From: a virus
Lineage: Duplodnaviria > Heunggongvirae > Uroviricota > Caudoviricetes
Strand: one strand, 5' to 3'
Length of the DNA stretch: 34,820 bases
Virus record (IMG/VR): IMGVR_UViG_2698536657_000023
Location: 1-34,820 of that record
This document shows positions 1 through 32,178 of this stretch, in pieces. The position numbers and the translations under genes are program-made. The notes under the pieces were generated by a model. The model ran no database searches. It was not told the origin of the DNA and was given only the letters and a program-made list of their open reading frames with translations. Positions within the stretch are counted from its first letter, which is position 1, and each line of letters starts with the position of its first letter.

Positions 1-1167
1 TCAGGCCTTATGGTGGAAATAATCACTCAGGCGAGAAAACATGCTGCCTTCCCCAACAGATTCCAGGGTAACCAGCGGCCAGTGCGCCACCTGTTTATCA
101 CGGTCGTAAAGTTCAATTTCCCCTACCCGCTGATGGGCGCTAATTGGCGCGGTGAGTTCTTTACCATCAAGGGTATATTTGGCTTTGATATGTGGAATTT
201 CGGCTTTCGGTAGTACCATCCAGAACTCTTGTTCTGTTCCCAGGGCGATATTTTCTTTATCGCCATACCAGATGCGTTCCGTACCGACCTTTTTCCCACG
301 GTGCAAAATTTGCACCGTAGTAAAGTTTTGTTGCCCCCAACGCAGTAATTTTCTTGCCTCTTCCTCACGACCTTTTGCACTGTCAGCCCCCATTACCACT
401 GCAATGAGACGACGCTGCCCATCTACAGCCGAAGCAATGAGGTTAAAACCGGCACCAGAAGTATGACCCGTTTTCAGGCCGTCAACATTCATGGTTTTAT
501 CCCACAACAACCCGTTACGGTTTTGCTGGGTGATACCGTTCCAGGTGAGACTTTTCTCACTGTACATATGATAAAACTCGGGCTCGCCGTGGATGATAGC
601 GCGAGAAAGCACAGCTAAATCATAAGCCGAGCTATGCTGGCCAGGTGCATCCAGACCATGCACTGTTTCAAAATGCGTATCCTTGAGATGCAGCTTCTCG
701 GCATAGTTGTTCATCATTTCAACAAACTGCCGTTGCCCACCGGCAATATAGTCAGCCAGAGCAACACAAGCGTCATTTCCGGAATCCACAATTAAACCAC
801 GGCTTAAATCACGTACCGATACGCGATCGCCCTCTTTCAAAAACATCAGTGAAGAACCGACAAACACCGGATTATCTTTCGCCCACGCATCGCGCCCCAC
901 GGTGACAATATCGTCTGGCGTAATGCGATGACTATCGATAGCGCGATCCACGACATAACCCGTCATCAGCTTTGTCAGGCTGGCGGGATTGCGCTGTTGA
1001 TGCTCATTACCCGCGGTGAGGATCTGACCGGTGGTGTAATCCATCAGTACCCAGGACCCGGCATGAATCTCTGGAGGCTGAGGTGAAAAAGGAATGTTTT
1101 CCGCCGCAAAACCAGACGATAAGTTAAAAACGAACAAAGAAGCAGCAATAATAAGACGGCGTTTCAA
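1..1167 (-). CDS. dacD: D-alanyl-D-alanine carboxypeptidase DacD (PBP6b), host gene
   Basis: Full-length ORF with signal peptide and the SxxK (SLTK), SGN and KTG motifs of low-MW class A PBPs; product recognised as E. coli DacD. Track start 1173 is an upstream TTG; 1167 (TTG, MKRRLII...) gives the 388-aa protein. Confidence 0.9.
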   Translation of the reverse strand: MKRRLIIAASLFVFNLSSGFAAENIPFSPQPPEIHAGSWVLMDYTTGQILTAGNEHQQRNPASLTKLMTGYVVDRAIDSHRITPDDIVTVGRDAWAKDNPVFVGSSLMFLKEGDRVSVRDLSRGLIVDSGNDACVALADYIAGGQRQFVEMMNNYAEKLHLKDTHFETVHGLDAPGQHSSAYDLAVLSRAIIHGEPEFYHMYSEKSLTWNGITQQNRNGLLWDKTMNVDGLKTGHTSGAGFNLIASAVDGQRRLIAVVMGADSAKGREEEARKLLRWGQQNFTTVQILHRGKKVGTERIWYGDKENIALGTEQEFWMVLPKAEIPHIKAKYTLDGKELTAPISAHQRVGEIELYDRDKQVAHWPLVTLESVGEGSMFSRLSDYFHHKA

Positions 1168-1846
1168 CAGCAAACCCTCAGGAGTTTCAAATAGCTGTTC
1201 TTTTTACGGAAATACTTATGAACTGGCTGGAATAAAGTGCAAGAAAATGTGACTACCCTCTCATTTTTATCTGACATGATCTGTTGCCACTCGCTGCCAA
1301 ATTGTGGCGCTAAAGCTGATTAGCACGGTGATATTTGATACTCTGGCAGACAGCAGAAATAACGGATTTAACCTAATGATGAATGACGGTAAGCAACAAT
1401 CTACCTTTTTGTTTCACGATTACGCGCAACACCCCTGAGAACCGCCATGAACAAGGGTTTCATGATTTGTGATTTTAGTTTGGTACGCAATTTGGTACAC
1501 AACACAATTTTCACTTCAGCGGGTAGTCATCAAACTCACCATAACGAGCATCGTTAATGATGTATGTGATCACCACAAATATCACATCTGGACTAGTTCC
1601 GTCTTCATGCGCAGGTATCTGTTCACGCCTCCCTTTCTGCAAATCCTAAAGATGAGATTTTGGGGTTTTGGGATATCTTTTTATCCTCAGTTCTCTATCA
1701 ATTCTACAAAGCAGTAATGAACCATCACTATGTGATAGTGAGGCATCCGCTACATTAAGCGCAGAGAAATGATGCAGTGGTGGGCGGACTGGCTTGATGA
1801 AAAGGTGGAGTGATGGTTATTCTAAATAAAAATAATGCATTAATTT

Positions 1847-1883: not shown

Positions 1884-3731
1884 TTAAAAAAACTCTTTTC
1901 CTGTTGTAAACATGCCTTCGGGAAGACGCGCACCGTTAACTGAAGAAAATATAGGACCATAATATTGCTTGTTATAGCTTTGTTGAAATGAAATATATCC
2001 ACCACCATATCCGTTATCTGACATATTTACTTGCGAAAAATAACAATTAATTGTTGACGCATCAATATCTCTAAACTGCTGCATGAATCCGCATTGGCCA
2101 ACAACAACATCACCATCATCTTCTTTTTTTGTTAAAATAGGAAGGTGAATCCAGTTAAAATTCCTTGCGCTCGTAGCCATATGTGTATACACGCGCTCGC
2201 AAATAATATCATCACCAGATGTTTTATTTATTGCATAATTTGTCACGTTTGCTCCATCGCCAAATATAGTTTCAGCAACATAGCTATATGTAGATGACGA
2301 AACTGTAAGCGTTGATGCTGTATGTAGTGTTACATGCCTTGATAAGAGCAATTTAGGAGCATAACCAGAATCAAGGTTAAAGGATGCATTTTCTGTCCTC
2401 AACCTTTGAAGAAAATCACTATGACCACCATGGTATGTACCGAAGAACTTTCCAGTTGATAATTCTTTTGCAGCAAACTCTGTTGCTCCATTCCCACCGA
2501 AGTAATATGAAGGCCCCCCATTCACAAAAGGAGTTATTGTTGCTATAAAATTGTCATAATCTAGTAATTCACAACATCCAAGGCTAAAAACGTTTAGCCC
2601 AACGAGATTTGCAGGTTGAAGCGTTGTCGTATCTGTATTTTCAACTTTAAGATACCAAGTTCCTCCAAGTCCATTTATTTCAATATCAATAGGAAGTGGT
2701 GGCTGACCACCTGGTAATATTTTTGTGTCAACGATCTTTTGCGTTGTCCAGTCAGTGTTGTTTCTGCTTATTGATATTGTTACTGACTTACTTGATGCAT
2801 TAGAGCATGCAAGTCTGACATGCGCTATGCTATTTGTTAACATATATGTTACATAAGCGTTTGTGGAAATTGAATAAACTTGAGGTGTGTTAAGGGTGAA
2901 ATCACCTTGTTCTGTTTCCGCGTGTATAGCGTCATCTGTTTTAGAAAAGCCATACAATGTACTTATTTGAGATTCAGTAAATGAAGATAGGGAGACGCCA
3001 GTGTCACTTTTTGTATGTGGTGATAATTTTGCGATAACTGCATCACTTACCATATATACACTTCCAGGCCTAAAAGGTGATGCCCCGCCATAGTTATTCG
3101 AGTCTGATGGTGAAACCTCATTTGTTACTCTATGAGAAATATATTTTCCTTTCCCATGACATCTTTTACTTATAATATAAAAGTCATTAGAATTTTCATC
3201 TTTGACTATTGCTTTTATGTGTGTTGTTATTGTAGGTGATGTTGGGGGGATGATTGATGTCACAAAGTTAACATCTATAGATTTTCGCACATTAATAAAT
3301 TCATCATCTATACTAGTAATTTTATCTTTTAACGTTCCATCTTCATATCCAATATTTTCAGTCCCATCAGGACCTGCGAGAGACTTTGATAGTTGATCCG
3401 GGTCATACTTCAGAACATTCGGAAAATAGAACTGCTGCGCACCATACGCATCATAAACAGCCATAGAGTGGCCTTGCACGGTTACAAACTTGGCAATCTG
3501 TCCGTTATATACCGGATATCCAGAAGCGTTAATGATGATTGGTTGCGAAACAGGAACGTGAGAACCGTCTTCATTTTCCACATAAACCTGAATCTGGTTT
3601 TCATGATTTACCGGGTCAGTGTCAATTTTACCGATATAAATTTTACCATTAGCTACGGCTTTAAAAGAACGAGCCATAGTGAAGAGTTGCGAAGGCATTC
3701 CTATAACCACATTTGGTGTTATATTAGTCAT
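1884..3731 (-). CDS. Tailspike protein; P22/Sf6-type head-binding N-domain with divergent receptor-binding body
   Basis: Residues MTNITPNVVIGMPSQLFTMARSFKAVANGKIYIGKIDTDPVN...VLKYDPDQ match the conserved N-terminal head-binding domain of P22 gp9/Sf6 tailspike. Start set at the internal ATG (3731) preceded by AGGA; the track ORF extends to 3833 in frame. Last gene of the late operon, as in P22. Confidence 0.85.
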   Translation of the reverse strand: MTNITPNVVIGMPSQLFTMARSFKAVANGKIYIGKIDTDPVNHENQIQVYVENEDGSHVPVSQPIIINASGYPVYNGQIAKFVTVQGHSMAVYDAYGAQQFYFPNVLKYDPDQLSKSLAGPDGTENIGYEDGTLKDKITSIDDEFINVRKSIDVNFVTSIIPPTSPTITTHIKAIVKDENSNDFYIISKRCHGKGKYISHRVTNEVSPSDSNNYGGASPFRPGSVYMVSDAVIAKLSPHTKSDTGVSLSSFTESQISTLYGFSKTDDAIHAETEQGDFTLNTPQVYSISTNAYVTYMLTNSIAHVRLACSNASSKSVTISISRNNTDWTTQKIVDTKILPGGQPPLPIDIEINGLGGTWYLKVENTDTTTLQPANLVGLNVFSLGCCELLDYDNFIATITPFVNGGPSYYFGGNGATEFAAKELSTGKFFGTYHGGHSDFLQRLRTENASFNLDSGYAPKLLLSRHVTLHTASTLTVSSSTYSYVAETIFGDGANVTNYAINKTSGDDIICERVYTHMATSARNFNWIHLPILTKKEDDGDVVVGQCGFMQQFRDIDASTINCYFSQVNMSDNGYGGGYISFQQSYNKQYYGPIFSSVNGARLPEGMFTTGKEFF

Positions 3732-18083: not shown

Positions 18084-18626
18084 TTAATTAGTGAGTCCGG
18101 GGATTACGGTTTGCCCGTGCTGTTCAAGGCGTTCAATTCTCGCCAGTAGCTGAGGCTTCTTAATTTTTCCCCAGCGATTGAGCAGGCGACCTGACATGCT
18201 GGCAACATCCTTCTCTTTCATGTACTCCAGCATTACGGCATTTCTCTCTTCTTCAAATTGACGATGACCAACCTGAAGCATGGCGTACATCCAGTTAAAT
18301 GCGTTGATGTAAGCAATTTTGATACGCATTGCTTCTTTTTTGGTGTAGGACATAACCAAAAGCATCAACCCATCCTTGCGGAGACGGTAGAATTTTTGCG
18401 GCTTACCATTCTGTAACTCATTGTTTTTATAGCAAAGCTCAAAGTTGAGCTTTGTATCAAACTCAGGAGGGCAAGCTTCTATGGTTCGCTCAATGTCACG
18501 GACTACGTTCTTCGGCAGCTTTCCAAATGCTTTTGCCACCATAAAAGAATCTGTAACCGGATCGTTGTTTGCTACAAAAATTAGGTCTCTGAAATCTATA
18601 TCGTTAACAACGGTTGGGTAGTTCAT
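18084..18626 (-). CDS. rha: Rha-family phage regulatory protein
   Basis: 180 aa; N-terminal block VVNDIDFRDLIFVANNDPVTDSFMVAKAFGKLPKNVVRDIERTI is the Rha signature; located between lysis genes and terS as P22 rha. Confidence 0.75.
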   Translation of the reverse strand: MNYPTVVNDIDFRDLIFVANNDPVTDSFMVAKAFGKLPKNVVRDIERTIEACPPEFDTKLNFELCYKNNELQNGKPQKFYRLRKDGLMLLVMSYTKKEAMRIKIAYINAFNWMYAMLQVGHRQFEEERNAVMLEYMKEKDVASMSGRLLNRWGKIKKPQLLARIERLEQHGQTVIPGLTN

Positions 18627-20858: not shown

Positions 20859-21482
20859 CTAACGTGTGACCGCATTCAAGATATTGTCTGCGATTGACTC
20901 TTCCTTGTGGCATTGCACCACCAGAGCGTCATACAGCGGCTTAACAGTGCGCGACCAGGTGGGTTGAGTAAGGTTTGGGATTAGCATCGTTACAGCGCGA
21001 TATGCGGCGCTTGCTGGCATCCTTGAATAGCCGACACCTTTGCATCTTCCGCACTCTTTCTCAACAACTCTCCCCCACTGCTCTGTTTTTGCTATATCAA
21101 CCGCGCGGCCTGTACCGTGGCAATCTCTGCATCTTGCCCCCGGCGTCGCGGCACTACGGCAATAATCCGCATAAGCGAATGTTGCGAGCACTTGCAGTAC
21201 CTTTGCCCTAGTATTTCCTTCAAGCTTTGCCACACCACGGTATTTCCCCGATACCTTGTGTGCAAATTGCATCAGATAGTTGATAGCCTTTTGTTTGTCG
21301 TTCTGGCTGAGTTCATGCTTACCGCAGAATGCAGCCATTCCGAATCCGGCTTGTGATTGCGCCATCCCCATAGCAGCCATCACATCAGTACCGGAAAGAG
21401 AGTCAGAAGCCGTAGCCCGTGGTGAGTCGCTCATCATCGGGCTTTTTGGCGAATGAAATTTAGCTACGCTTTCGAGTCTCAT
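20859..21482 (-). CDS. Q: Late antiterminator Q (lambda type)
   Basis: 207 aa, near-identical to lambda Q ([31 protein letters not shown]...; zinc-binding CRDCHGTG...CGRCKG). Confidence 0.95.
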
Positions 21483-22144
21483 GCGCCTTCTCCCTGTACC
21501 TGAATCAATGTGAGGTTTCCGCAGAACACTGCGCCGGTATCGATATACATCTGGTTGGCAAACTTGAGTGGTTTCACTGCTGGCGTATGACCAAAGATGA
21601 ACGTGTCCGCGCCTTTGATTTCTTTCACGATCCCGTCTTGTGAGTTGCTGATTCGTTCGCGGTTCCAGATTACCTGCTGATGATCAACTGGCTTTCCAAA
21701 CTCGTATTCGTCACAAGGATAATCGGCGTGGCAGATGACATATTTTTTATCTTTGCTCACCAGTTCGATGATTAACGGAAGTTCTTCTGCTTTATGGGCA
21801 AGAGCTTTAGCCAGAGTTTCTTTGTCGTAATCGAGATTAAAGAACCAACTACCGCCATTAAGCAGCCAGTGATTGACGTTTCCGCGCTCTGATAAGCCAT
21901 CAATCATCATTTGCTCATGGTTTCCACGTACAGCTCTGAACCAGGGGAATGTGATTAATTCCAGGCATTCAACGTTCTCTGCACCACGATCAACCAAATC
22001 GCCCACCGAGATAAGCAGGTCTTTTTTGTTGTCGAATCCAATCGTATCCAGTTTGTTCATCAGGTTCGTGTAGCATCCGTGCAGATCGCCAACTACCCAA
22101 ATATTTCGGTATTTGCTGCCATCAATTTTTTCGTAATAGCGCAT
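21479..22144 (-). CDS. ninI: Ser/Thr protein phosphatase NinI (lambda orf221)
   Basis: Metallophosphatase motifs GDLHG, GDLVDRG, GNHE; near-identical to lambda orf221 from MRYYEKIDG; the track start is an in-frame upstream extension. Confidence 0.9.
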
Positions 22145-22328
22145 CTCTTTCACTCCATCCGCGATGAACCATGAGAACGTCGTTGACGATGGCGTGCATT
22201 TTCCCGTCTTTATCATCAACGTATTTTCTGACCGTACCGCGACTACATTTCAGTCTGCGAGCTACTTCTGTCTGGTTTCCGTATGCTTCAACGAGCATGT
22301 CTGGAATGGTTTTTACTGAGAACGTCAT
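22122..22328 (-). CDS. ninH: NinH
   Basis: 68 aa, matches lambda NinH ([36 protein letters not shown]); start coupled to ninG stop. Confidence 0.85.
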
Positions 22329-22936
22329 GCGGCCTCACTTCTGCTATTTCGCAGGTCTTTGAGTTTCTGTTGGTACTCTGCCTTGATCGCCTTGCACTCT
22401 TCGATAGTCCAGCGATGGCGGTTATGGTTTGATTCGATTTCGTCTACTGCTTCCTGCCCGATTCGGTTAATCAGTTCGACGCGATACGGAACAAGATTTC
22501 CGCTTTTGTGCTGGTTGCACACCACGCATTGCTTGTGAATATTGCGTTCATCAAATCGGAGTTGAGGTGCCGCAGCAGTTGTCCGGTAATGCCCGGCATC
22601 CCACTGAGCAGACGTGAGCGTTCCGCACGAGATACATGGTAAGTCGCGGTCTCTTTCTCTGATGAAGGCGTTTACGGCTTGCTGGGCTTGTTTAATCCAG
22701 TAACTGCGGGGCTTTAAGGCGAGTTTTCGAATCTTCAGTTTATCTTTCTGTTTCTGCTCCTCTCGTCGTCGTTTCTTCTCTGCTGCTTTTTCCGCTTTTT
22801 CGCGTTCTTTGCTTCGTCGTTCGAGTGCTATCTTTGTTCCACACTCTGGAGAGCACCACCACTGATTAGCGAATGCAGGGTGAAACCATTCCCGACATTC
22901 TTCGTTTTTACATCGTCTTCGCGCTGGTTTAGCCAT
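22325..22936 (-). CDS. ninG: NinG / Rap recombination protein
   Basis: 203 aa, Cys-rich N-terminus and CxxC motifs; matches lambda NinG. Confidence 0.9.
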
Positions 22937-23105
22937 CGTCTTCTTCCTCGTACATTGAGCTATTCGGATCGCTCATCAGTTCTGCGCAGCAGTGCTCACA
23001 CACGTGAACTTCCGGCAGATGCAGCTTCTGACCGCAGTTAGCGCACGTTAAAGCCCGCTCGACGCTTTCTTTCTGGTATTGAATGGATTGGGATGGGCTA
23101 AGCAT
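22929..23105 (-). CDS. ninF: NinF
   Basis: 58-aa ORF read by hand ([28 protein letters not shown]...EEEDDG), matches lambda NinF; stop overlaps ninG start; below track cutoff. Confidence 0.75.
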
Positions 23106-23470
23106 TATTGGATTCTCTGCATCATGAGAAAGACAATCATGGCGGCTCGGAGGGGATTTTCATGTATAGCTCGCTTAGATTTACAGTAGGCCACACCGCG
23201 TGCACCCCACTCATCTTCATCGAGATTGATAATGCTAATCCTGTATTTTTCAATAATCGGCCATGCGTCTGCTGGGTTTGCGCATGGGTTAAAGGATCCG
23301 CGCTCAACTTCTACTTCAACTGCGTCTCCGTTTACAATGTCTCCCTCAAATGAGACAAACACCATATCGCCATTCTCACCTTCTTTGTAATCCGGTGATC
23401 CGTTATGAATGGCTTCGAATACCGCCACGTTAATTTCAAAATCACTTAACTGTGAATAATCCATTGTCAT
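23105..23470 (-). CDS. Hypothetical acidic protein inserted between ninE and ninF
   Basis: 121 aa from the ATG overlapping the ninE stop (ATGA); its stop overlaps the ninF start (TAATG); no counterpart in lambda nin. Confidence 0.6.
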
Positions 23471-23643
23471 TTCCTCGCACGATGTCTTAGCCACCGGATA
23501 TCCCACAGGTGAGCCGTGTAGTTGAAGGTTTTTACGTCAGATTCTTTTGGGATTGGCTTGCGTTTATTTCTGGAGCGTTTCGTTGGAAGGTATTTGCAGT
23601 TTTCGCAGATGATGTCGGTGATGCTTCGTCGCTGTCGTCTCAT
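23467..23643 (-). CDS. ninE: NinE
   Basis: 58 aa from internal Met ([37 protein letters not shown]...), matches lambda NinE; start coupled to MTase stop. Confidence 0.75.
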
Positions 23644-24167
23644 TCTGCCCTCCTGACGCCCTGCCCGATCGCCATCAATGCCGCTTTGGATACGGTAGTA
23701 AACATCCGTCGAGGACTGATGAACGGTCGCCAAATCAGCAGCATGGAGCCTTTGCTGTTTCCCTTCTTCTCCAGCCCTGTCGATGGTTCGATAAAATTAA
23801 TCCGTCCATCAGTGATAATGCGAACTTCGTCGACACTCTCCAGAGCCTTGCTGAACCATCCGACTGACATATCCTCTGGCACAAGCATAACTACCGTCTG
23901 TCGCTGTTGTATGCACTGCTCAGCGGCTTTATCCACCCACGGCCTGATATTGCTGTACGGTGGGTTATTCCAGATTGCACCGTGGCTTACCCACTCAGAA
24001 TTGAGCGCGTCGTCGGCCTCAGTTAGCCAGTGAGCACACAGAGCATTTTTGTCGCTCGCTGCCGAATCCAGCCAGAATCCAAACTCAATATCCAGTGCAT
24101 CAAAAAGCCAAAGCGGCGTTTGCCAGCAGTCCTTGTCGTGTGCTGGCGTATTTGATTTGATAGTCAT
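23640..24167 (-). CDS. Orphan phage DNA N6-adenine methyltransferase (Dam family)
   Basis: About 175 aa with the NPPYS catalytic motif of N6-adenine MTases; occupies the lambda ninC/ninD slot; start taken at the Met coupled to the ninB stop. Confidence 0.8.
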
Positions 24168-24604
24168 GCAGCCCGATCTCCCCATCGCGCTTTCCACTCC
24201 AGAGCCAGTCGCGCTTCGTCTGACCACTTAACGCCACGCTCTGTACCGAATGCCTGTATAAGCTCTAATAGCTCCGCAAATTCGCTTACACGCATCCTGC
24301 TGGTTGACTGGCCTATTACCACAAAGCCATTCCCGGCAAGGTTAGGAACAACATCCTGCTGCTTTAATGCTGCGGTAAACACACACTTCCAGCTTTCTGC
24401 ATCCAGCCAGCGACCATGCCATTCAACCTGACGAGAGACGTCACCTAAGCAGGCCCATAGCTTCCTGTTTTGGTCTAAGCTGCGGTTGCGTTCCTGAATG
24501 GTTACTACGATTGGTTTGGTTGGGTCTGGAAGAATTTGCTGTACTGCGTGAATAGCGTTTTGCTGATGTGCTGGAGATCGAATTTCAAAGGTTAGTTTTT
24601 TCAT
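24164..24604 (-). CDS. ninB: NinB recombination mediator
   Basis: 146 aa from MKKLTFEIRSPAHQQNAIHAVQQILPD..., near-identical to lambda NinB; the track start is an upstream TTG. Confidence 0.9.
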   Translation of the reverse strand: MKKLTFEIRSPAHQQNAIHAVQQILPDPTKPIVVTIQERNRSLDQNRKLWACLGDVSRQVEWHGRWLDAESWKCVFTAALKQQDVVPNLAGNGFVVIGQSTSRMRVSEFAELLELIQAFGTERGVKWSDEARLALEWKARWGDRAA

Positions 24605-24620
24605 GACTTCCCTCTCCCCC

Positions 24621-24652
24621 AAATAAAAAGGCCTGCGATTACCAGCAGGCCT
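24621..24652 (-). terminator. tR2-like intrinsic terminator between replication genes and nin region
   Basis: Minus-strand hairpin AGGCCUGC-UGGUAAUC-GCAGGCCU followed by UUUUUAUUU, between the helicase stop and the ninB start. Confidence 0.7.
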
Positions 24653-24677
24653 GTTATTAGCTCAGTGATGTAGATGG

Positions 24678-26054
24678 TCATACGTCCGCCCCTTGTGCAT
24701 ATCGTCTGCCACGCGCAGCAGGTGCATTTGATGCTGTGCAAATCTGTCTGGCTTCATCCTGGTCACATGCAACAAAGTGTCCGTTGCAGAACCGCTGGTA
24801 AACCGTACCAAGTGAGCCAAAACGGTTTTTTGTCACAATGATTTCAGCAAATGGTGCGGCGCTACTGTTCTCGTCATATACCGCTTCCCGATAGAGCATG
24901 ATGATTGAGTCTGCGTCCTGTTCAATGCTTCCAGAATCACGCAAATCTGCGTTTGTCGGGCGTTTGTTTGGTCGCTTCTCAACATCGCGCGAAAGCTGAC
25001 TCAGGGAGATAACAGGCGTTTTCAGGTCTTTCGCCATCGCCTTCAGGCTTCCGGAGATGTGAGCAATTGCGAGGTCGTTGCGGTCTGCTTTCGGCTTCTC
25101 AATCAGGCCAAGATAATCCGCCATGATGAGTGACAGGTTTGGATTTTCCTGTTTATGCCGTTCTGCGATTGAGCGTATTTCTTCGACCGATAACCGCGAG
25201 GCATCGACTACCCATACATCCAAATCTGCAAGCTGACTCATGCCGTTAGCAACACGCGCCCAGCCTTCGTCATCCATCGATGCAGGATTTCGCAGTACGC
25301 TAACCGACATCCTCCCGGCGTTGGCAATGCTTCGCTCTGCAATCTGCAATGCGCTCATTTCCATCGAGAAAATCAACACTCCGCGCCTGACGTCAGAACC
25401 AGGAATAACGCGGCTTGCAACGCCTTCGGCAATCTTCAGCGCCAGTTCGGTTTTCCCCATACCAGGACGAGCAGCGATTATCACCAGGTCTTCCGCGTTC
25501 ATCCCTCCGGTGATGGCATCAAGTTCTTCGATTCCGGTCTTCAGGGTATCTGACTCTTCTCCGTTCCTCAGACGCCTGTCAAGCGTGTCAGTGTAGTCAG
25601 TGATGATTTCCCCTAACCGTACAGGTTTAACCTCGTCACGGGGCTTTCTGATGGCTGAAAGACGCTTTACAAGTTCATCCATCGCCTGACTCGATGCGTC
25701 GATGGTTCCGCTCTGAATTGGTTCACGCATTTCATCCATGATTTCCAGCACCAGACGGCGGTGATAGTTATCCGCGACCATTCCGGCATATCCCTTCAGG
25801 TTTGCGGCACTCGGGCAGTTTTTGCTGGTCATCAGGATTGACGTGAAATGCTCCTCTCCGCACGCCTCGGCAACCATCAGCGCATCGATTAGGTTTCTGT
25901 TTCTCGCCTGCTTGCGGATAACCTCGAAGGCTTTCCGGTAGAGCGGAATTGAAAACGCTTCCGGCTCCAGCGTTGCAAGAACGTCACTGGCGGTTGGAGT
26001 TAATCCACCAATCAGCAGGCCACCGATAACGCTCGCTTCGATATCCTGTCTCAT
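24678..26054 (-). CDS. Replicative DNA helicase, DnaB family (P22 gp12-type)
   Basis: 458 aa; Walker A ARPGMGKT, Walker B region and RecA-like C-domain; start coupled to the O-like stop. Confidence 0.9.
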
Positions 26055-26998
26055 GCAATCCCCCTGTCTGCAAACTTCCCTTCCCGAACTCCCGTTAACG
26101 AGTCTTCTCTCAGCAGGTAATCAAAATCAGCCGTCCAGCCCGTGTCGTTGTCTCCGAAGTAAAACGGCTTGGCCTGATGCACAAACGCCCTGACATACGC
26201 TCTGAAACCGTCCACGTTTGGCGTTTTCAGTTGCGGGATGATTTTCTTCAGGCGGCGTTTTCGTTTCTCGTTGACCGCAACAGCGTGTGGCAGTCTGTCA
26301 CCGACTTCGGTGTTGTAGGCGTTCAGGAAGGATTCGTAGTCGATTCGTTCTGCCTTGCGACGTTCAGGTTTAACCTGCCCATCGCCTCCCCCATTGGGGG
26401 GTAGGGGGGTATTATTTATATTCTTGTTAATACCTTCTTGTTCATGATGTGCGGTTGTTTGTGCGGCTTCATGTGCGCTTTCATGTGCGGCATGTACGCT
26501 GAAAGCCGCGATATTGCTGGCTTCATCATGTGCGGCATCATGTGCGGTTGTTTGTGCGGCTTCATGTGCGGGTAAATTGTCCATTTTTTGAGCATATTCA
26601 TGGTAATTTGTGATGGTTATCACACGGCCTTTTTGCTTCTCTCCATCAATGGAGATCATCCCCTCTTTCACAAAAACCTGAAGCATCCGCTCAACCTGAT
26701 CACGGCTTGCTGGCTTGCCATGTCTGTCGCATAACTGAAGACCTAAATCAGCTGCTGTCACAACCAGTTGACCGGGTTGCAGATGCCATTCATGACCTTT
26801 GAAATTCGCTTTGTATGGCTTTCTGGCGGCATTCAGGAGAAGGTTTTCCCACAGGGTGCGAAGATAAACATCTTTCGCCCATGACTGTTTCAGAATGCTC
26901 CGGTACAACGGAATGTAACCAGTTTTCTGGTTCTCCATCCTGTTGCTCCTGCGCTCGTGTGCGGCGCTGAAATCGTAGATTTTTGCTGTATTGCTCAT
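26051..26998 (-). CDS. Replication initiator (O-like, P22 gp18-type) containing ori iterons
   Basis: 315 aa; N-terminus [10 protein letters not shown] resembles lambda O MTNTAKI; His/Ala-rich linker encoded by the iteron array; sits directly upstream of the helicase. Confidence 0.8.
26442..26571. repeat. Iteron array (putative origin of replication) inside the initiator gene
   Basis: At least eight copies of a TGTGCGG-containing 10-12 bp unit in two clusters, including an approximately 30-bp duplicated block, flanked at 26400-26440 by a G-run and an AT-rich tract. Confidence 0.6.
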
Positions 26999-27998: not shown

Positions 27999-28715
27999 AT
28001 GGAAAATAAAAAATCACTGACGACAGAACAGCTGGAAGACGCTAAGCGGCTTAAGGCTTTGTATGAGTCAAAAAAGAAAGAATTGGGAATAACCCAATAC
28101 TCAATCGCTGATGAACTGGGTATCACCCAAGGAGCGGTAGGGCATTATCTTAATGGCAGAAATGCGCTAAACGTTGAGGTTGCATCTGGTTTTGCACGAT
28201 TGTTGCAAGTCTCAATTGCTGATTTTAGCCAGTCAATTGCTGCCAAGGTTGCAGAACAGGCAGAAAGCCTTAAGAGCGATGCCAACGTAAGGTATGCAGG
28301 GGAATACAGAGCAGGAAAGAGGTATCCGGTGTTAAGCAGTATCCAGGCTGGCTCGTGGTGTGAAGCATGCGAACCATACACCATTAAAGACATAGATGTT
28401 TGGCTTGAGTCTGACGCGCATATTCAAGGTAATGCGTTCTGGCTTAAAGTGGAAGGTGATTCAATGACGGCACCGGTTGGGTTAAGCATTCCAGAGGGAA
28501 CATTCGTTCTTTTCGATACCGGAAGGGAGGCGATCAACGGCAGCTTGGTCATAGCAAAACTTTCTGACTCTAACGAAGCAACATTCAAGAAGCTGATAAT
28601 CGACGGCGGAAATAAATACCTCAAGGGACTTAATCCTGCATGGCCTCTCGTGCCAATCAATGGAAACTGCAAGATTATAGGCGTTGCAATTGAGACAAAA
28701 CTCAGACTGGTTTGA
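27999..28715 (+). CDS. cI: CI prophage repressor (HTH N-domain, S24 LexA-like autopeptidase C-domain)
   Basis: 238 aa; N-terminus MENKKSLTTEQLEDAKRLKALYESKKKELG aligns with lambda CI but the recognition helix differs; C-domain has the GDSM serine and FKKL lysine; divergent from cro. Confidence 0.9.
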   Translation: MENKKSLTTEQLEDAKRLKALYESKKKELGITQYSIADELGITQGAVGHYLNGRNALNVEVASGFARLLQVSIADFSQSIAAKVAEQAESLKSDANVRYAGEYRAGKRYPVLSSIQAGSWCEACEPYTIKDIDVWLESDAHIQGNAFWLKVEGDSMTAPVGLSIPEGTFVLFDTGREAINGSLVIAKLSDSNEATFKKLIIDGGNKYLKGLNPAWPLVPINGNCKIIGVAIETKLRLV

Positions 28716-28733: not shown

Positions 28734-29102
28734 ATGGTTGGAACCGCTATAGCAAGCTTTTTTGGGATGTTGGCAATCTCGACAATTTACGGCTTAGCGC
28801 ATGCTTTTATTGCGAAATCTCTATCAGAAAAAATAAGCCAGGCTTGGGCGCATAGATCAGCTCGTTTCATGATTCTGGTGATCATAGCAATACAAGGGAT
28901 ATCTGCATTTATCCTCTATGGATCAAGCTTATACCTATTGTATCAAGGCGCGACATTTACGCCTTACACCAGTGATTACGGAACTCTATACGATGGTAGT
29001 GAAGACATCACTGTGGCTTGGATCGTCTTTGGTTTATCTATGGCCGTGTCTGTTGTAGCAGACATCATTAAGGTAATTCTCGTCTTAACCTTCGCTGACT
29101 AA
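28734..29102 (+). CDS. Hypothetical 3-TM membrane protein co-transcribed with cI
   Basis: 122 aa with three predicted TM helices; ATG 18 nt after the cI stop with SD AGGGGG; occupies the lambda rexAB position. Confidence 0.7.
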   Translation: MVGTAIASFFGMLAISTIYGLAHAFIAKSLSEKISQAWAHRSARFMILVIIAIQGISAFILYGSSLYLLYQGATFTPYTSDYGTLYDGSEDITVAWIVFGLSMAVSVVADIIKVILVLTFAD

Positions 29103-29469: not shown

Positions 29470-29769
29470 ATGACAGTAGTCATTACATATCTGGCTGACG
29501 ATAACGCCAGAAATCGCCGCAGAGCACGCAGACAGGCTCAACGTGAACAGGCGATGCAAGAACAGCGACTGGCGCGAAAAATTGCGCTAAAGCTCTCTGG
29601 TTGCGTCAGAGCGGATAAAGCAGCATCACTCGGAATCCTTCGCTGCAAGAAGGCAGATGAAGTCGAGAGTAAACAGAATCGTATTTACTACCGCAAGCCA
29701 CGCAGTGAAATGGGTGTGACTTGTGTTGGTCGCCAGAAAATGAAATTAGGCAGCAAACCACTTATTTGA
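29470..29769 (+). CDS. N-like transcription antiterminator
   Basis: 99-aa basic protein with arginine-rich motif NARNRRRARRQAQREQ near the N-terminus; strong SD GGAGG; first gene after PL/nutL. Confidence 0.65.
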   Translation: MTVVITYLADDNARNRRRARRQAQREQAMQEQRLARKIALKLSGCVRADKAASLGILRCKKADEVESKQNRIYYRKPRSEMGVTCVGRQKMKLGSKPLI

Positions 29770-29777
29770 GGTGATAT

Positions 29778-30248
29778 ATGACAAAATCATGGAGCGTACC
29801 TTTTCCTGAATCAGAAACTGAACATGATGGAATGCCTGTTTTCTGGAGATTCCAAGCGACAGTTGAAGAAGATGGAATCAAAATATTCGCACTTCAATAT
29901 ATAGCTTTTCATCAGACAGAGCATTATGCATGGTTGGTTCCTGCGCATTGGATTGTTAATTTTAAACCAGCACCAAATCAGTGGTTACAGGAATGGAAAC
30001 AAAGGAGAAATAGATATGCAATTAAGAAAGTAGCAAAAAATGCAGAAAGATCTTTTGCATTCCCGACGAAGAAACTTGCCATTGAAAGTTTATTGCGCCG
30101 GAAGAAATACCATTTGATGAGAATCAAACAAGATTTGGCTGTTGTATCAACTCTTGTTGATGGGATGAAGAATATTGATACATCAACACCAGGTATTGAA
30201 TATAACTTTGGACACAACCAAGAAACAGAAAACTGGGTGTTTTATTAG
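29778..30248 (+). CDS. Hypothetical Trp-rich protein, AT-rich gene downstream of N
   Basis: 156 aa; SD GAGGTGA; visibly lower GC than neighbours; soluble, basic; no recognised motif. Confidence 0.7.
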   Translation: MTKSWSVPFPESETEHDGMPVFWRFQATVEEDGIKIFALQYIAFHQTEHYAWLVPAHWIVNFKPAPNQWLQEWKQRRNRYAIKKVAKNAERSFAFPTKKLAIESLLRRKKYHLMRIKQDLAVVSTLVDGMKNIDTSTPGIEYNFGHNQETENWVFY

Positions 30249-30780: not shown

Positions 30781-30869
30781 AGGTGTTCGCGTATTTTTAA
30801 ATGCGGCAAAGACTGAAGTATTAAATCAGCGTTATTTCCTTGGGCCGTGTCCATTCTGAGAACAATCAT

Positions 30870-31475
30870 ATGAGCAAAGAATTTTACGCAAGACTGGCAG
30901 CTATTCAGGAGAATCTGAACGCGCCAAAGAATCAGTACAACTCATTCGGTAAATATAAATACAGAAGCTGCGAAGACATTCTTGAAGGCGTTAAGCCGTT
31001 ACTGAATGGCCTGTTTTTATCAATCAGTGATGAAGTTGTGTTGATTGGTGATCGGTATTACGTGAAAGCCACGGCAACTATTACTGATGGCGAAAACAGT
31101 CATACGGCAACCGCTCTTGCACGAGAGGAAGAAAGCAAGAAAGGAATGGATTCTGCACAAGTTACGGGAGCTACAAGCTCTTATGCACGCAAGTATTGCC
31201 TCAATGGTTTGTTCGGCATTGATGATGCGAAAGATGCAGATACCGACGAGCATAAACATCAGCAGAACGCAGCAGCAAAGCAATCAAAACCATCACCTAC
31301 ACCTGAACAGGTTCTAAAAGCATTCACTGACGCAGCAATGCAGAAAAACACTGTAGAAGAGCTTAAACAGGCGTTCGCCAAAGCGTGGAAGATGCTCGAA
31401 GGCACACCGGAGCAGCACAAAGCGCAGGACGTTTACAACATCAGACGAGACGAATTAGAAGGAGCTGCTGCTTAA
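30870..31475 (+). CDS. erf: Erf single-strand annealing recombinase (P22 type)
   Basis: 201 aa from MSKEFYARLAAIQENLNAPKNQYNSFGKYKYRSCEDILEGVKPLL..., closely matches P22 Erf. Confidence 0.9.
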   Translation: MSKEFYARLAAIQENLNAPKNQYNSFGKYKYRSCEDILEGVKPLLNGLFLSISDEVVLIGDRYYVKATATITDGENSHTATALAREEESKKGMDSAQVTGATSSYARKYCLNGLFGIDDAKDADTDEHKHQQNAAAKQSKPSPTPEQVLKAFTDAAMQKNTVEELKQAFAKAWKMLEGTPEQHKAQDVYNIRRDELEGAAA

Positions 31476-31858
31476 TGGCACATTCGATTACTGTAAGACT
31501 AAACAAGCCCGCAAGAGAGTTTCAGGCCGGGGAAAATATCGGATTCAACATCCGTGCTGGCGTTCAGTATTACGATCGCCAGACAAAAAAGAAAGAATGG
31601 ACAAACTACAGCGCCGTTGTATTTGCCAAGCCGGGAGCGCAAGCGGATTACTACCGTAGTGTTCTTGTTGAAGGTGGCATTGTTGAAATTACCGGAGAAA
31701 ACATCAGGGTTGATGTTTATCAGGGGCAAAATGGTCAATCAATCACTCTTGAATTACTGAATGCAAAGATTGGATTTGCAGCTTCAGGAAATGGCCCGCA
31801 GCAGCAAAGTAGTAACCAGCAGAACACTCCTGTATACGACGATTCCATCCCATTCTGA
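31475..31858 (+). CDS. ssb: Single-stranded DNA-binding protein
   Basis: 127 aa from internal Met coupled to the erf stop (TAATG); OB-fold-like N-domain, Gly/Gln-rich linker and acidic C-terminal tail DDSIPF typical of SSB. Confidence 0.75.
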   Translation: MAHSITVRLNKPAREFQAGENIGFNIRAGVQYYDRQTKKKEWTNYSAVVFAKPGAQADYYRSVLVEGGIVEITGENIRVDVYQGQNGQSITLELLNAKIGFAASGNGPQQQSSNQQNTPVYDDSIPF

Positions 31859-31881
31859 TTTAGAAAAATAAGGATTTAATT

Positions 31882-32178
31882 ATGCCAGCGCCTCTGTATG
31901 GTGCGGATGACCCACGCCGCTGTTCCGGCAATTCCGTATCGGAGGTGCTGGATAAATTCAGGAAAAACTACGACCGGATAATGTCGCTACCGCAGGAAAC
32001 GAAAGAGGAAAAGGAATTTCGCCATTGTATATGGCTTGCAGAGAAAGAAGAACGCGAGCGAATTTACCAGACATCAATCCGACCATTCCGCAAAGCCACA
32101 TATACCCACTTCCCTGAATATATCGACCCGCGCCTGCGTAATTACCGATCACGTTATGGCGCTATCAGTAATGACTGA
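31882..32178 (+). CDS. Hypothetical protein (possibly Abc2-like anti-RecBCD, unverified)
   Basis: 98 aa, SD AAGGAT; position after erf/ssb is where P22 carries abc genes; assignment is positional only. Confidence 0.55.

Follow-up and report, generated by a model that had tools for sequence, protein, structure and literature searches.

The nin region of a P22-like prophage, with a Dam-family methyltransferase gene after ninB and ninX between ninE and ninF

Gene content and layout of the nin region

The DNA analysed here (the window, 34,820 nucleotides, IMG/VR record IMGVR_UViG_2698536657_000023) carries a P22-like prophage inserted in sbcB. It resembles CUS-3, IME10 and Sf6, and its tailspike has a P22 head-binding domain. 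All nin genes are on the minus strand and occupy the stretch from the replication genes to Q; a tR2-type terminator precedes them, and ATGA-type stop/start overlaps join them, as is the case in a lambdoid nin region. In the direction of transcription, the features of this segment are the following.

26054-24678, minus strand: DnaB-like helicase gene, upstream of the terminator and the nin genes
24629..24652, minus strand: tR2-type intrinsic terminator, an 8-bp stem (6 G-C pairs) followed by TTTTATTTGG, directly 5' of ninB
24164..24604, minus strand: ninB, Orf-family recombination mediator, 146 aa (Pfam NinB, E=1.1e-54; 99.3% identical to lambda NinB)
23640..24167, minus strand: phage dam, orphan N6-adenine DNA methyltransferase, 175 aa (PF05869, TIGR01712)
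23952..23966, minus strand: NPPYS codons of the methyltransferase, residues 68-72, motif IV (AAC CCA CCG TAC AGC)
23467..23643, minus strand: ninE, 58 aa (Pfam NinE, E=7e-44; 98.3% identical to P22, 94.6% to lambda)
23105..23470, minus strand: ninX (DUF2591), 121 aa if read from its first ATG (Pfam Phage_P22_NinX; PHROG 444)
22929..23105, minus strand: ninF, 58 aa (Pfam NinF, E=1.9e-10; 91.4% identical to P22, 84.9% to lambda)
22325..22936, minus strand: ninG, Rap-type junction endonuclease, 203 aa (Pfam NinG, E=8.5e-92; 98.5% identical to lambda)
22122..22328, minus strand: ninH, 68 aa (Pfam Phage_NinH, E=2.4e-44; 100% identical to lambda)
21479..22144, minus strand: ninI, Ser/Thr phosphatase, 221 aa (97.7% identical to lambda NinI)
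21482-20859, minus strand: Q, which follows the nin genes

All that a first-pass annotation of this DNA had placed between 23105 and 24167 was found there, on the minus strand. A 174-aa open reading frame also runs antisense inside dam (23509-24033, plus strand), and we take it as a by-product of the dam coding strand.

The genes at the centre of the region are packed without gaps. ATGA forms the junction between ninB and the methyltransferase gene (24167-24164), between the latter and ninE (23643-23640), and between ninE and the 121-aa frame (23470-23467), while TAATG (23107-23103) forms the junction between that frame and ninF. Direct reading of the letters thus agrees with the earlier description of both ends of the 121-aa gene as translationally coupled. 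Coupling of this kind is not a signature of insertion, because lambdoid nin regions in general have overlapping stop/start codons of the ATGA type (PMC8022706). The nin genes of P22 likewise overlap tightly, with ATGA-type junctions.

Relationship to lambda, P22 and other phages

The flanks of the window segment (tR2, ninB, ninE, ninG, ninH, ninI and Q) are 97.0-98.6% identical to lambda at the DNA level. Positions 24681-24164, terminator included, are 98.6% identical to lambda 40567-41084. Homology to lambda ends at 24164, the stop codon of ninB, returns over ninE (23636-23470), and is found again from 23071, 28 nt into ninF. The flanks had been called lambda-identical, which is true of the NinH protein and an overstatement for the others: they are near-identical, with protein identities to lambda that go from 99.3% (NinB) through 98.5% (NinG), 97.7% (NinI) and 94.6% (NinE) to 84.9% (NinF), the last being closer to its P22 counterpart (91.4%). 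The gene order of lambda is ninB-C-D-E-F-G-H-I. That is, lambda has ninC (PAPS-reductase-like) and ninD where the window has dam, and it lacks ninX, unlike the window. Both the coordinates and the lambda comparison therefore bear out the placement of the methyltransferase gene in the ninC/ninD slot, between ninB and ninE.

Comparison with P22 (X78401) accounts for the other half of the segment. The nin order of P22 is ninA-B-D-E-X-F-G-Y-H-Z, which has the order ninE-X-F-G in common with the window, with ninE at 2328-2504, ninX at 2501-2839 and ninF at 2832-3008. By blastn, window positions 23654-22325 are colinear with P22 2318-3612 (84% identity over 1348 bp). P22 NinX, a protein of 112 aa, is 49% identical to that of the window and is encoded at the same position between ninE and ninF. 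The two phages differ on either side of this stretch: P22 carries ninD where the window has dam, and ninY and ninZ where the window has the lambda-type ninH and ninI.

The methyltransferase gene occupies the same nin slot in phages 434, HK97, SfI, HK140 and mEp043, and the entire order ninB-dam-ninE-ninX-ninF is found in phages IME10, N7, HF4s, Sf101 and HK544, which cover 81-97% of our 1.8-kb query at 97-98% identity. The products are annotated in these matching phages as methylase, NinB, NinX, NinE and NinF. Sf101 is also integrated in sbcB, and its 13-bp att core is that of the window prophage. Among 5426 complete E. coli genomes, at least 160 (e.g. E2348/69 and UMNK88) contain the block too, with gene names given by PGAP. 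The five-gene arrangement is thus already known, from sequenced and annotated phages as well as from E. coli genomes.

The distribution of the two accessory genes among these phages further indicates that dam and ninX behave as independent modules, each of which is found without the other. Phages 434, SfI, HK140 and mEp043 match the query in two pieces (75-77% coverage), and in 434 and SfI the matched span of the record is about 365 bp shorter than that of the query, which is the length of ninX. P22, in turn, has ninX together with ninD rather than dam. The breaks in lambda homology fall at gene ends, a pattern that corresponds to classical lambdoid mosaicism. Against this background the wording of the first-pass annotation, which had described the region as remodelled and the 121-aa gene as inserted, does not hold. 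The modules are a standard set: VT2-Sakai has the dam-ninE block at 98.4% DNA identity, ninX is in its P22 slot, and the order of the genes is that of known phages.

The phage Dam methyltransferase and its likely role

The 175-aa product of dam matches the Pfam Dam family PF05869 with 217.9 bits (cut-off 28.1) over profile positions 1-167 of 169, and this is its sole Pfam match. It also scores 265 bits (cut-off 97.05) against the NCBIfam equivalog TIGR01712, 'phage N-6-adenine-methyltransferase'. Copies at least 95% identical were found by tblastn in 244 phage records. Motif IV, NPPY (residues 68-71; 23966-23955), is intact. DxWxTP and LDxAAS are also present, and all three motifs align with both T1 Dam and VT2-Sakai orf32. 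The first-pass annotation had presented the gene as an orphan N6-adenine methyltransferase of the Dam family with an NPPYS motif and no adjoining restriction gene, and the profile matches and coordinates agree. No restriction gene stands beside it, because the gene overlaps both of its neighbours by 4 nt, and these neighbours, ninB and ninE, are both specific Pfam matches; the methyltransferase is therefore an orphan. The same adjacency of ninB, methylase and ninE is seen in VT2-Sakai and HK544.

The closest characterised relative is orf32 of the Stx2 phage VT2-Sakai (M.EcoVT2Dam), with which the window protein shares 173 of 174 residues. The single difference (D79 here, E in VT2-Sakai) is conservative and outside NPPY. 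M.EcoVT2Dam likewise has 175 aa and NPPY, and its gene lies directly after ninB and before ninE, although its carrier is a Stx-converting phage and ours a P22-like prophage in sbcB. On sequence grounds the two are effectively the same protein. The target of M.EcoVT2Dam is given as 5'-GATC-3' in PMC6602927, which cites Radlinska & Bujnicki 2001, and a strain with two extra copies of the enzyme had no motif besides GATC that could be attributed to them (PMC6602927). It is also named among phage Dam enzymes in PMC7556043. From these two secondary citations and from the 99% identity, we infer that the window enzyme is specific for GATC; in sequence it is essentially identical to an enzyme cloned already in 2001. 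T1 Dam, itself a GATC methylase, is a more distant member of the same Pfam family (33% identity over 158 residues) that keeps DxWxTP, LDxAAS and NPPYS. Unlike the window protein, T1 Dam is extended N-terminally and internally to 237 aa, and it belongs to a virulent siphovirus with a different gene context. Membership of the non-specific adenine methylases Hia5/Hin1523 in the same family is not claimed here; VT2, T1 Dam and PF05869 are all absent from the paper concerned. A search of solved structures by sequence (with Dam, NinX and the profile of 137 NinX sequences) gave nothing meaningful.

The position of dam also bears on when it is expressed. A terminator scan located the terminator (24652-24629) immediately 5' of ninB, and no sigma-70-like promoter was found within 22000-25000. 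The dam gene and the nin block are probably made after N-type antitermination in lytic growth, because the tR2-type terminator precedes dam, whose translation is linked to that of its neighbours. In the Stx phage Phi24B, the product of the Dam gene was detected in lysogen cultures (PMC3342100), and that study did not separate repressed prophage from spontaneous induction as its source. Expression of Dam at the prophage stage is compatible with a detection in lysogen cultures.

Taking the comparisons together, we consider it very likely that this locus is the nin segment of a P22-like lambdoid prophage, built from three known interchangeable modules, in which the phage Dam would top up GATC methylation during lytic growth and NinX is independent of Dam. 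The first module is ninB with ninG, ninH and ninI of the lambda type. The second is the dam-ninE block, as in Stx phages, HK97 and 434, taking the place of lambda ninC-ninD, and the third a P22-type ninX at its canonical place after ninE and before ninF. As predicted from its sequence, the enzyme would move a methyl group from S-adenosylmethionine to the N6 position of adenine in GATC. Replication of phage DNA in lytic growth may outrun the limited host Dam, a gap that the phage enzyme would close, so that every GATC of the progeny DNA ends up methylated. Full methylation may shield this DNA from methylation-sensitive GATC endonucleases, and it may erase the hemimethylated or unmethylated GATC signals that are read by MutH or SeqA. 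In support of the replication step, virion DNA of P22 and lambda is undermethylated by host Dam, possibly as replication outpaces it (PMC8022706). In the window itself GATC is depleted about two-fold, with 77 sites observed against 146±11 expected from shuffles or 181 from a Markov model, a depletion that fits long-term selection on the site.

An E. coli host is normally Dam+. This weakens the case for a benefit from a second GATC methylase, and a supplement to the host enzyme is the role that we would assign to it. In PMC7556043, what phage Dam enzymes do is said to be 'still not well understood'.

A narrower proposal, which takes up the self-protection suggested in the first-pass annotation, is that the orphan methylase mainly guards incoming or progeny phage DNA against host restriction enzymes. 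Full GATC methylation does block enzymes of the MboI/DpnII type (established enzymology; assay in PMC7556043), the Dam sites of lambdoid virion DNA otherwise fall short of full methylation (PMC8022706), the depletion of GATC in the window is consistent with selection on the site, and the Dam family is widespread in virulent phages (T1-like, Klebsiella and Vibrio phages). The protection would, however, extend to a single 4-bp sequence, which is methylated by the host in any case. The common Type I and Type III systems of E. coli would be unaffected by it, and DNA methylated at GATC would become open to attack by methyl-dependent enzymes such as those of the DpnI type. Self-protection is thus possible only against GATC-specific, methylation-sensitive enzymes, and as the main purpose of the gene we regard it as somewhat doubtful. 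The same shared target counts against the other suggestion of the first pass, an epigenetic role, here taken as that of a prophage Dam which is expressed in the lysogen, supplements the host enzyme and stabilizes lysogeny or alters host expression. Host Dam is reported to be needed for stable lysogeny of the Stx phage 933W (cited in PMC3342100), and the Phi24B product was seen in lysogen cultures. Yet a methylase with the target of host Dam would add no new epigenetic mark, in line with the strain that carries two extra copies and shows no extra motif (PMC6602927). Moreover, the gene is downstream of a tR2-type terminator, with no promoter-like site nearby, and 4-nt overlaps tie it to the delayed-early genes of an N-dependent operon. 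We therefore consider a role in the lysogen quite unlikely.

That annotations of this kind can mislead is clear from a Stx-prophage 'GATC DNA adenine methylase' that turned out to prefer 16S rRNA (PMC10810198). This enzyme, M.EcoPA8orf6770P, modifies 16S rRNA in complex with PNB-2 (PMC10810198, 2023), and by analogy the window protein could in reality methylate RNA and depend on a partner subunit. M.EcoPA8orf6770P, however, belongs to the MT-A70 family, has DPPW, and is encoded by gp5 at the other prophage end, whereas the window protein has NPPY, matches PF05869 only, and shares 99% identity with an enzyme that is reported in PMC6602927 as a GATC DNA methylase. Assignment to the MT-A70-type rRNA methyltransferases (M.EcoPA8orf6770P or M.EcoGV) was rejected on the motif and the Pfam match, and we hold an RNA target to be extremely improbable. 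The reading of the enzyme as a GATC methylase that supplements host Dam in lytic growth is the one that we retain.

Identity, predicted fold and possible role of NinX

The gene between ninE and ninF had been described as an extra acidic gene of 121 aa. It is indeed present, acidic and absent from lambda, and its length is the part of the description that changes. The product matches Pfam PF10765 (DUF2591, Phage_P22_NinX) with 69.5 bits (cut-off 22.6) over the full profile (positions 1-114 of 114) and PHROG 444 with E=8e-42. It has a pI of 4.4, with 21 D+E against 10 K+R, and a mass of roughly 13.5 kDa. In an alignment of 137 sequences, the second ATG, at 23464, is the start column in 102 of the 136 aligned homologues; it has GAGG 8 nt on its 5' side, and the NCBI NinX cluster (786 members) has a length of 119 aa. 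The start is probably this second ATG, which would give a protein of 119 aa and, as a consequence, a ninE/ninX junction of TGAcaATG and not ATGA.

A confident AlphaFold (AF2) model of NinX was obtained with a pLDDT of 89.8 and a pTM of 0.82, with the topology alpha-3beta-alpha-3beta-alpha. In the 137-sequence alignment, conservation falls on the three helices (e.g. NPxDAWPII), with strong variation in the beta segments. The strong structural neighbours of the model are exclusively uncharacterised phage or prophage proteins. Among the solved structures, PDB 4pup (Burkholderia cenocepacia) and 1r7l (a Bacillus cereus prophage protein) are likewise uncharacterised structural-genomics entries, with 15-18% identity to NinX, and a sequence-level match of the NinX profile to either was not found. 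Literature searches for NinX/DUF2591 and 1R7L returned only genome-description papers and unrelated chemistry. Going by the model and the alignment, NinX is probably not an enzyme, because there is no conserved polar catalytic cluster. Our best guess, of low confidence and drawn from the predicted fold, is that it may bind a protein or nucleic-acid partner in early lytic development.

The family is widespread (enteric, Vibrio and Klebsiella phages contribute 1619 protein clusters), and its alleles are exchanged between nin regions that are otherwise near-identical. For example, between HK544 and the window DNA homology is missing only across 23429-23163, which corresponds to a different ninX allele, and the NinX proteins of Sf101 and HK544 are 43% identical (PMC4159516). 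These allele swaps, the wide distribution, the contrast between conserved helices and variable beta segments, and the fact that NinX is small, acidic, non-essential and encoded in an accessory early region are all in favour of a counter-defence or host-takeover effector, in which a variable beta-sheet surface would track a variable host target. On the other hand, NinX has no experimental or contextual tie to any defence system, its structural neighbours are all uncharacterised, and the variability could just reflect weak constraint; on balance, we think an effector function unlikely. Less likely still would be a role of the phage Dam that goes beyond topping up GATC methylation, e.g. through relaxed specificity at lytic expression levels.

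For the methylase, the identity of its putative target with the host Dam site has a practical consequence. The comparison of methylomes between the lysogen and a cured strain, which had been proposed as a check, would be uninformative because of this shared target: no new motif would appear even with an active phage Dam. To assess the enzyme, a dam- background or methylation fractions of virion DNA would be required. As a discovery the region carries little weight, since its genes, their order and their tight coupling are all present in phages already sequenced and annotated. Being a common phage family with a good predicted structure, NinX would make a reasonable low-cost target for screens of phage accessory genes.

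Host-prophage junction

Only one of the two junctions lies inside the window, and the second prophage end falls beyond it. The features on this side are as follows.

Features at the host end of the window
1-1460, host-prophage junction
1-1173 (-), dacD-like penicillin-binding protein gene

The 5' end of sbcB begins at 1376 (+) with MMNDGKQQSTFLFHDY, after which the sequence diverges and a stop codon follows after 20 codons. There is a single copy (1412-1424) of CGTAATCGTGAAA, the 13 bp att core described in phages Sf101 and 2851. The broken sbcB 5' end and this single att core together place the prophage in sbcB; Sf101 is likewise inserted in sbcB.

Divergence in the nin region and tetranucleotide frequencies

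The central part of ninX (23163-23429), a gene lying between ninE and ninF, is the sole stretch of the nin region without DNA homology to phage HK544, whereas the flanks on either side are 97-98% identical to that phage. This mismatch agrees with the published divergence between Sf101 and HK544, whose nin regions were remarked to have ninX as their only divergent gene (PMC4159516). From sequence comparison, allele exchange appears to have taken place inside this one small gene. Antisense to the nearby dam methyltransferase gene runs an open reading frame of 174 aa (23509-24033, +), probably a by-product of coding-strand composition.

Across the whole window, GATC is approximately two-fold under-represented: 77 sites are observed, where dinucleotide shuffles give 146±11, a Markov model predicts 181 and base composition 135. 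The sites left are evenly spread (4-9 per 2.5 kb). The depletion of CTAG is far stronger (7 observed, 34 by Markov expectation).

Regulatory, replication and recombination genes

A gene for an antirepressor-like regulatory protein with a Rha/ORF11CD3 domain (18084-18626) separates the lysis region from the packaging genes. Sites beside the repressor and the N-like antiterminator are typical for superinfection-exclusion or defence morons. Here, two open reading frames adjoin these genes, each assigned only to a PHROG of unknown function and neither matching Pfam when searched.

Features of the regulatory, replication and recombination regions
27999-28715, repressor
28734-29102, 122-aa open reading frame, PHROG 6534
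29470-29769, N-like antiterminator
29778-30248, 156-aa open reading frame, PHROG 1636
26998-26051, O-like replication initiator gene
30840-31475, Erf-family annealing protein
31385-31858, single-strand DNA-binding protein
31882-32178, Abc2 anti-RecBCD protein

Within the O-like initiator gene, a run of direct repeats with a 12-nt period and the core CATGTGCGG (26441-26583) gives the encoded protein a His/Ala-rich repeat. The DNA repeats are probably the origin iterons, judging from the analogous situation in lambda and phage L (PMC8022706).

The Erf, single-strand DNA-binding protein and Abc2 genes form a P22-type recombination module (30840-32178), and the prophage therefore joins P22-type recombination functions to the lambda-type recombination genes ninB and ninG.
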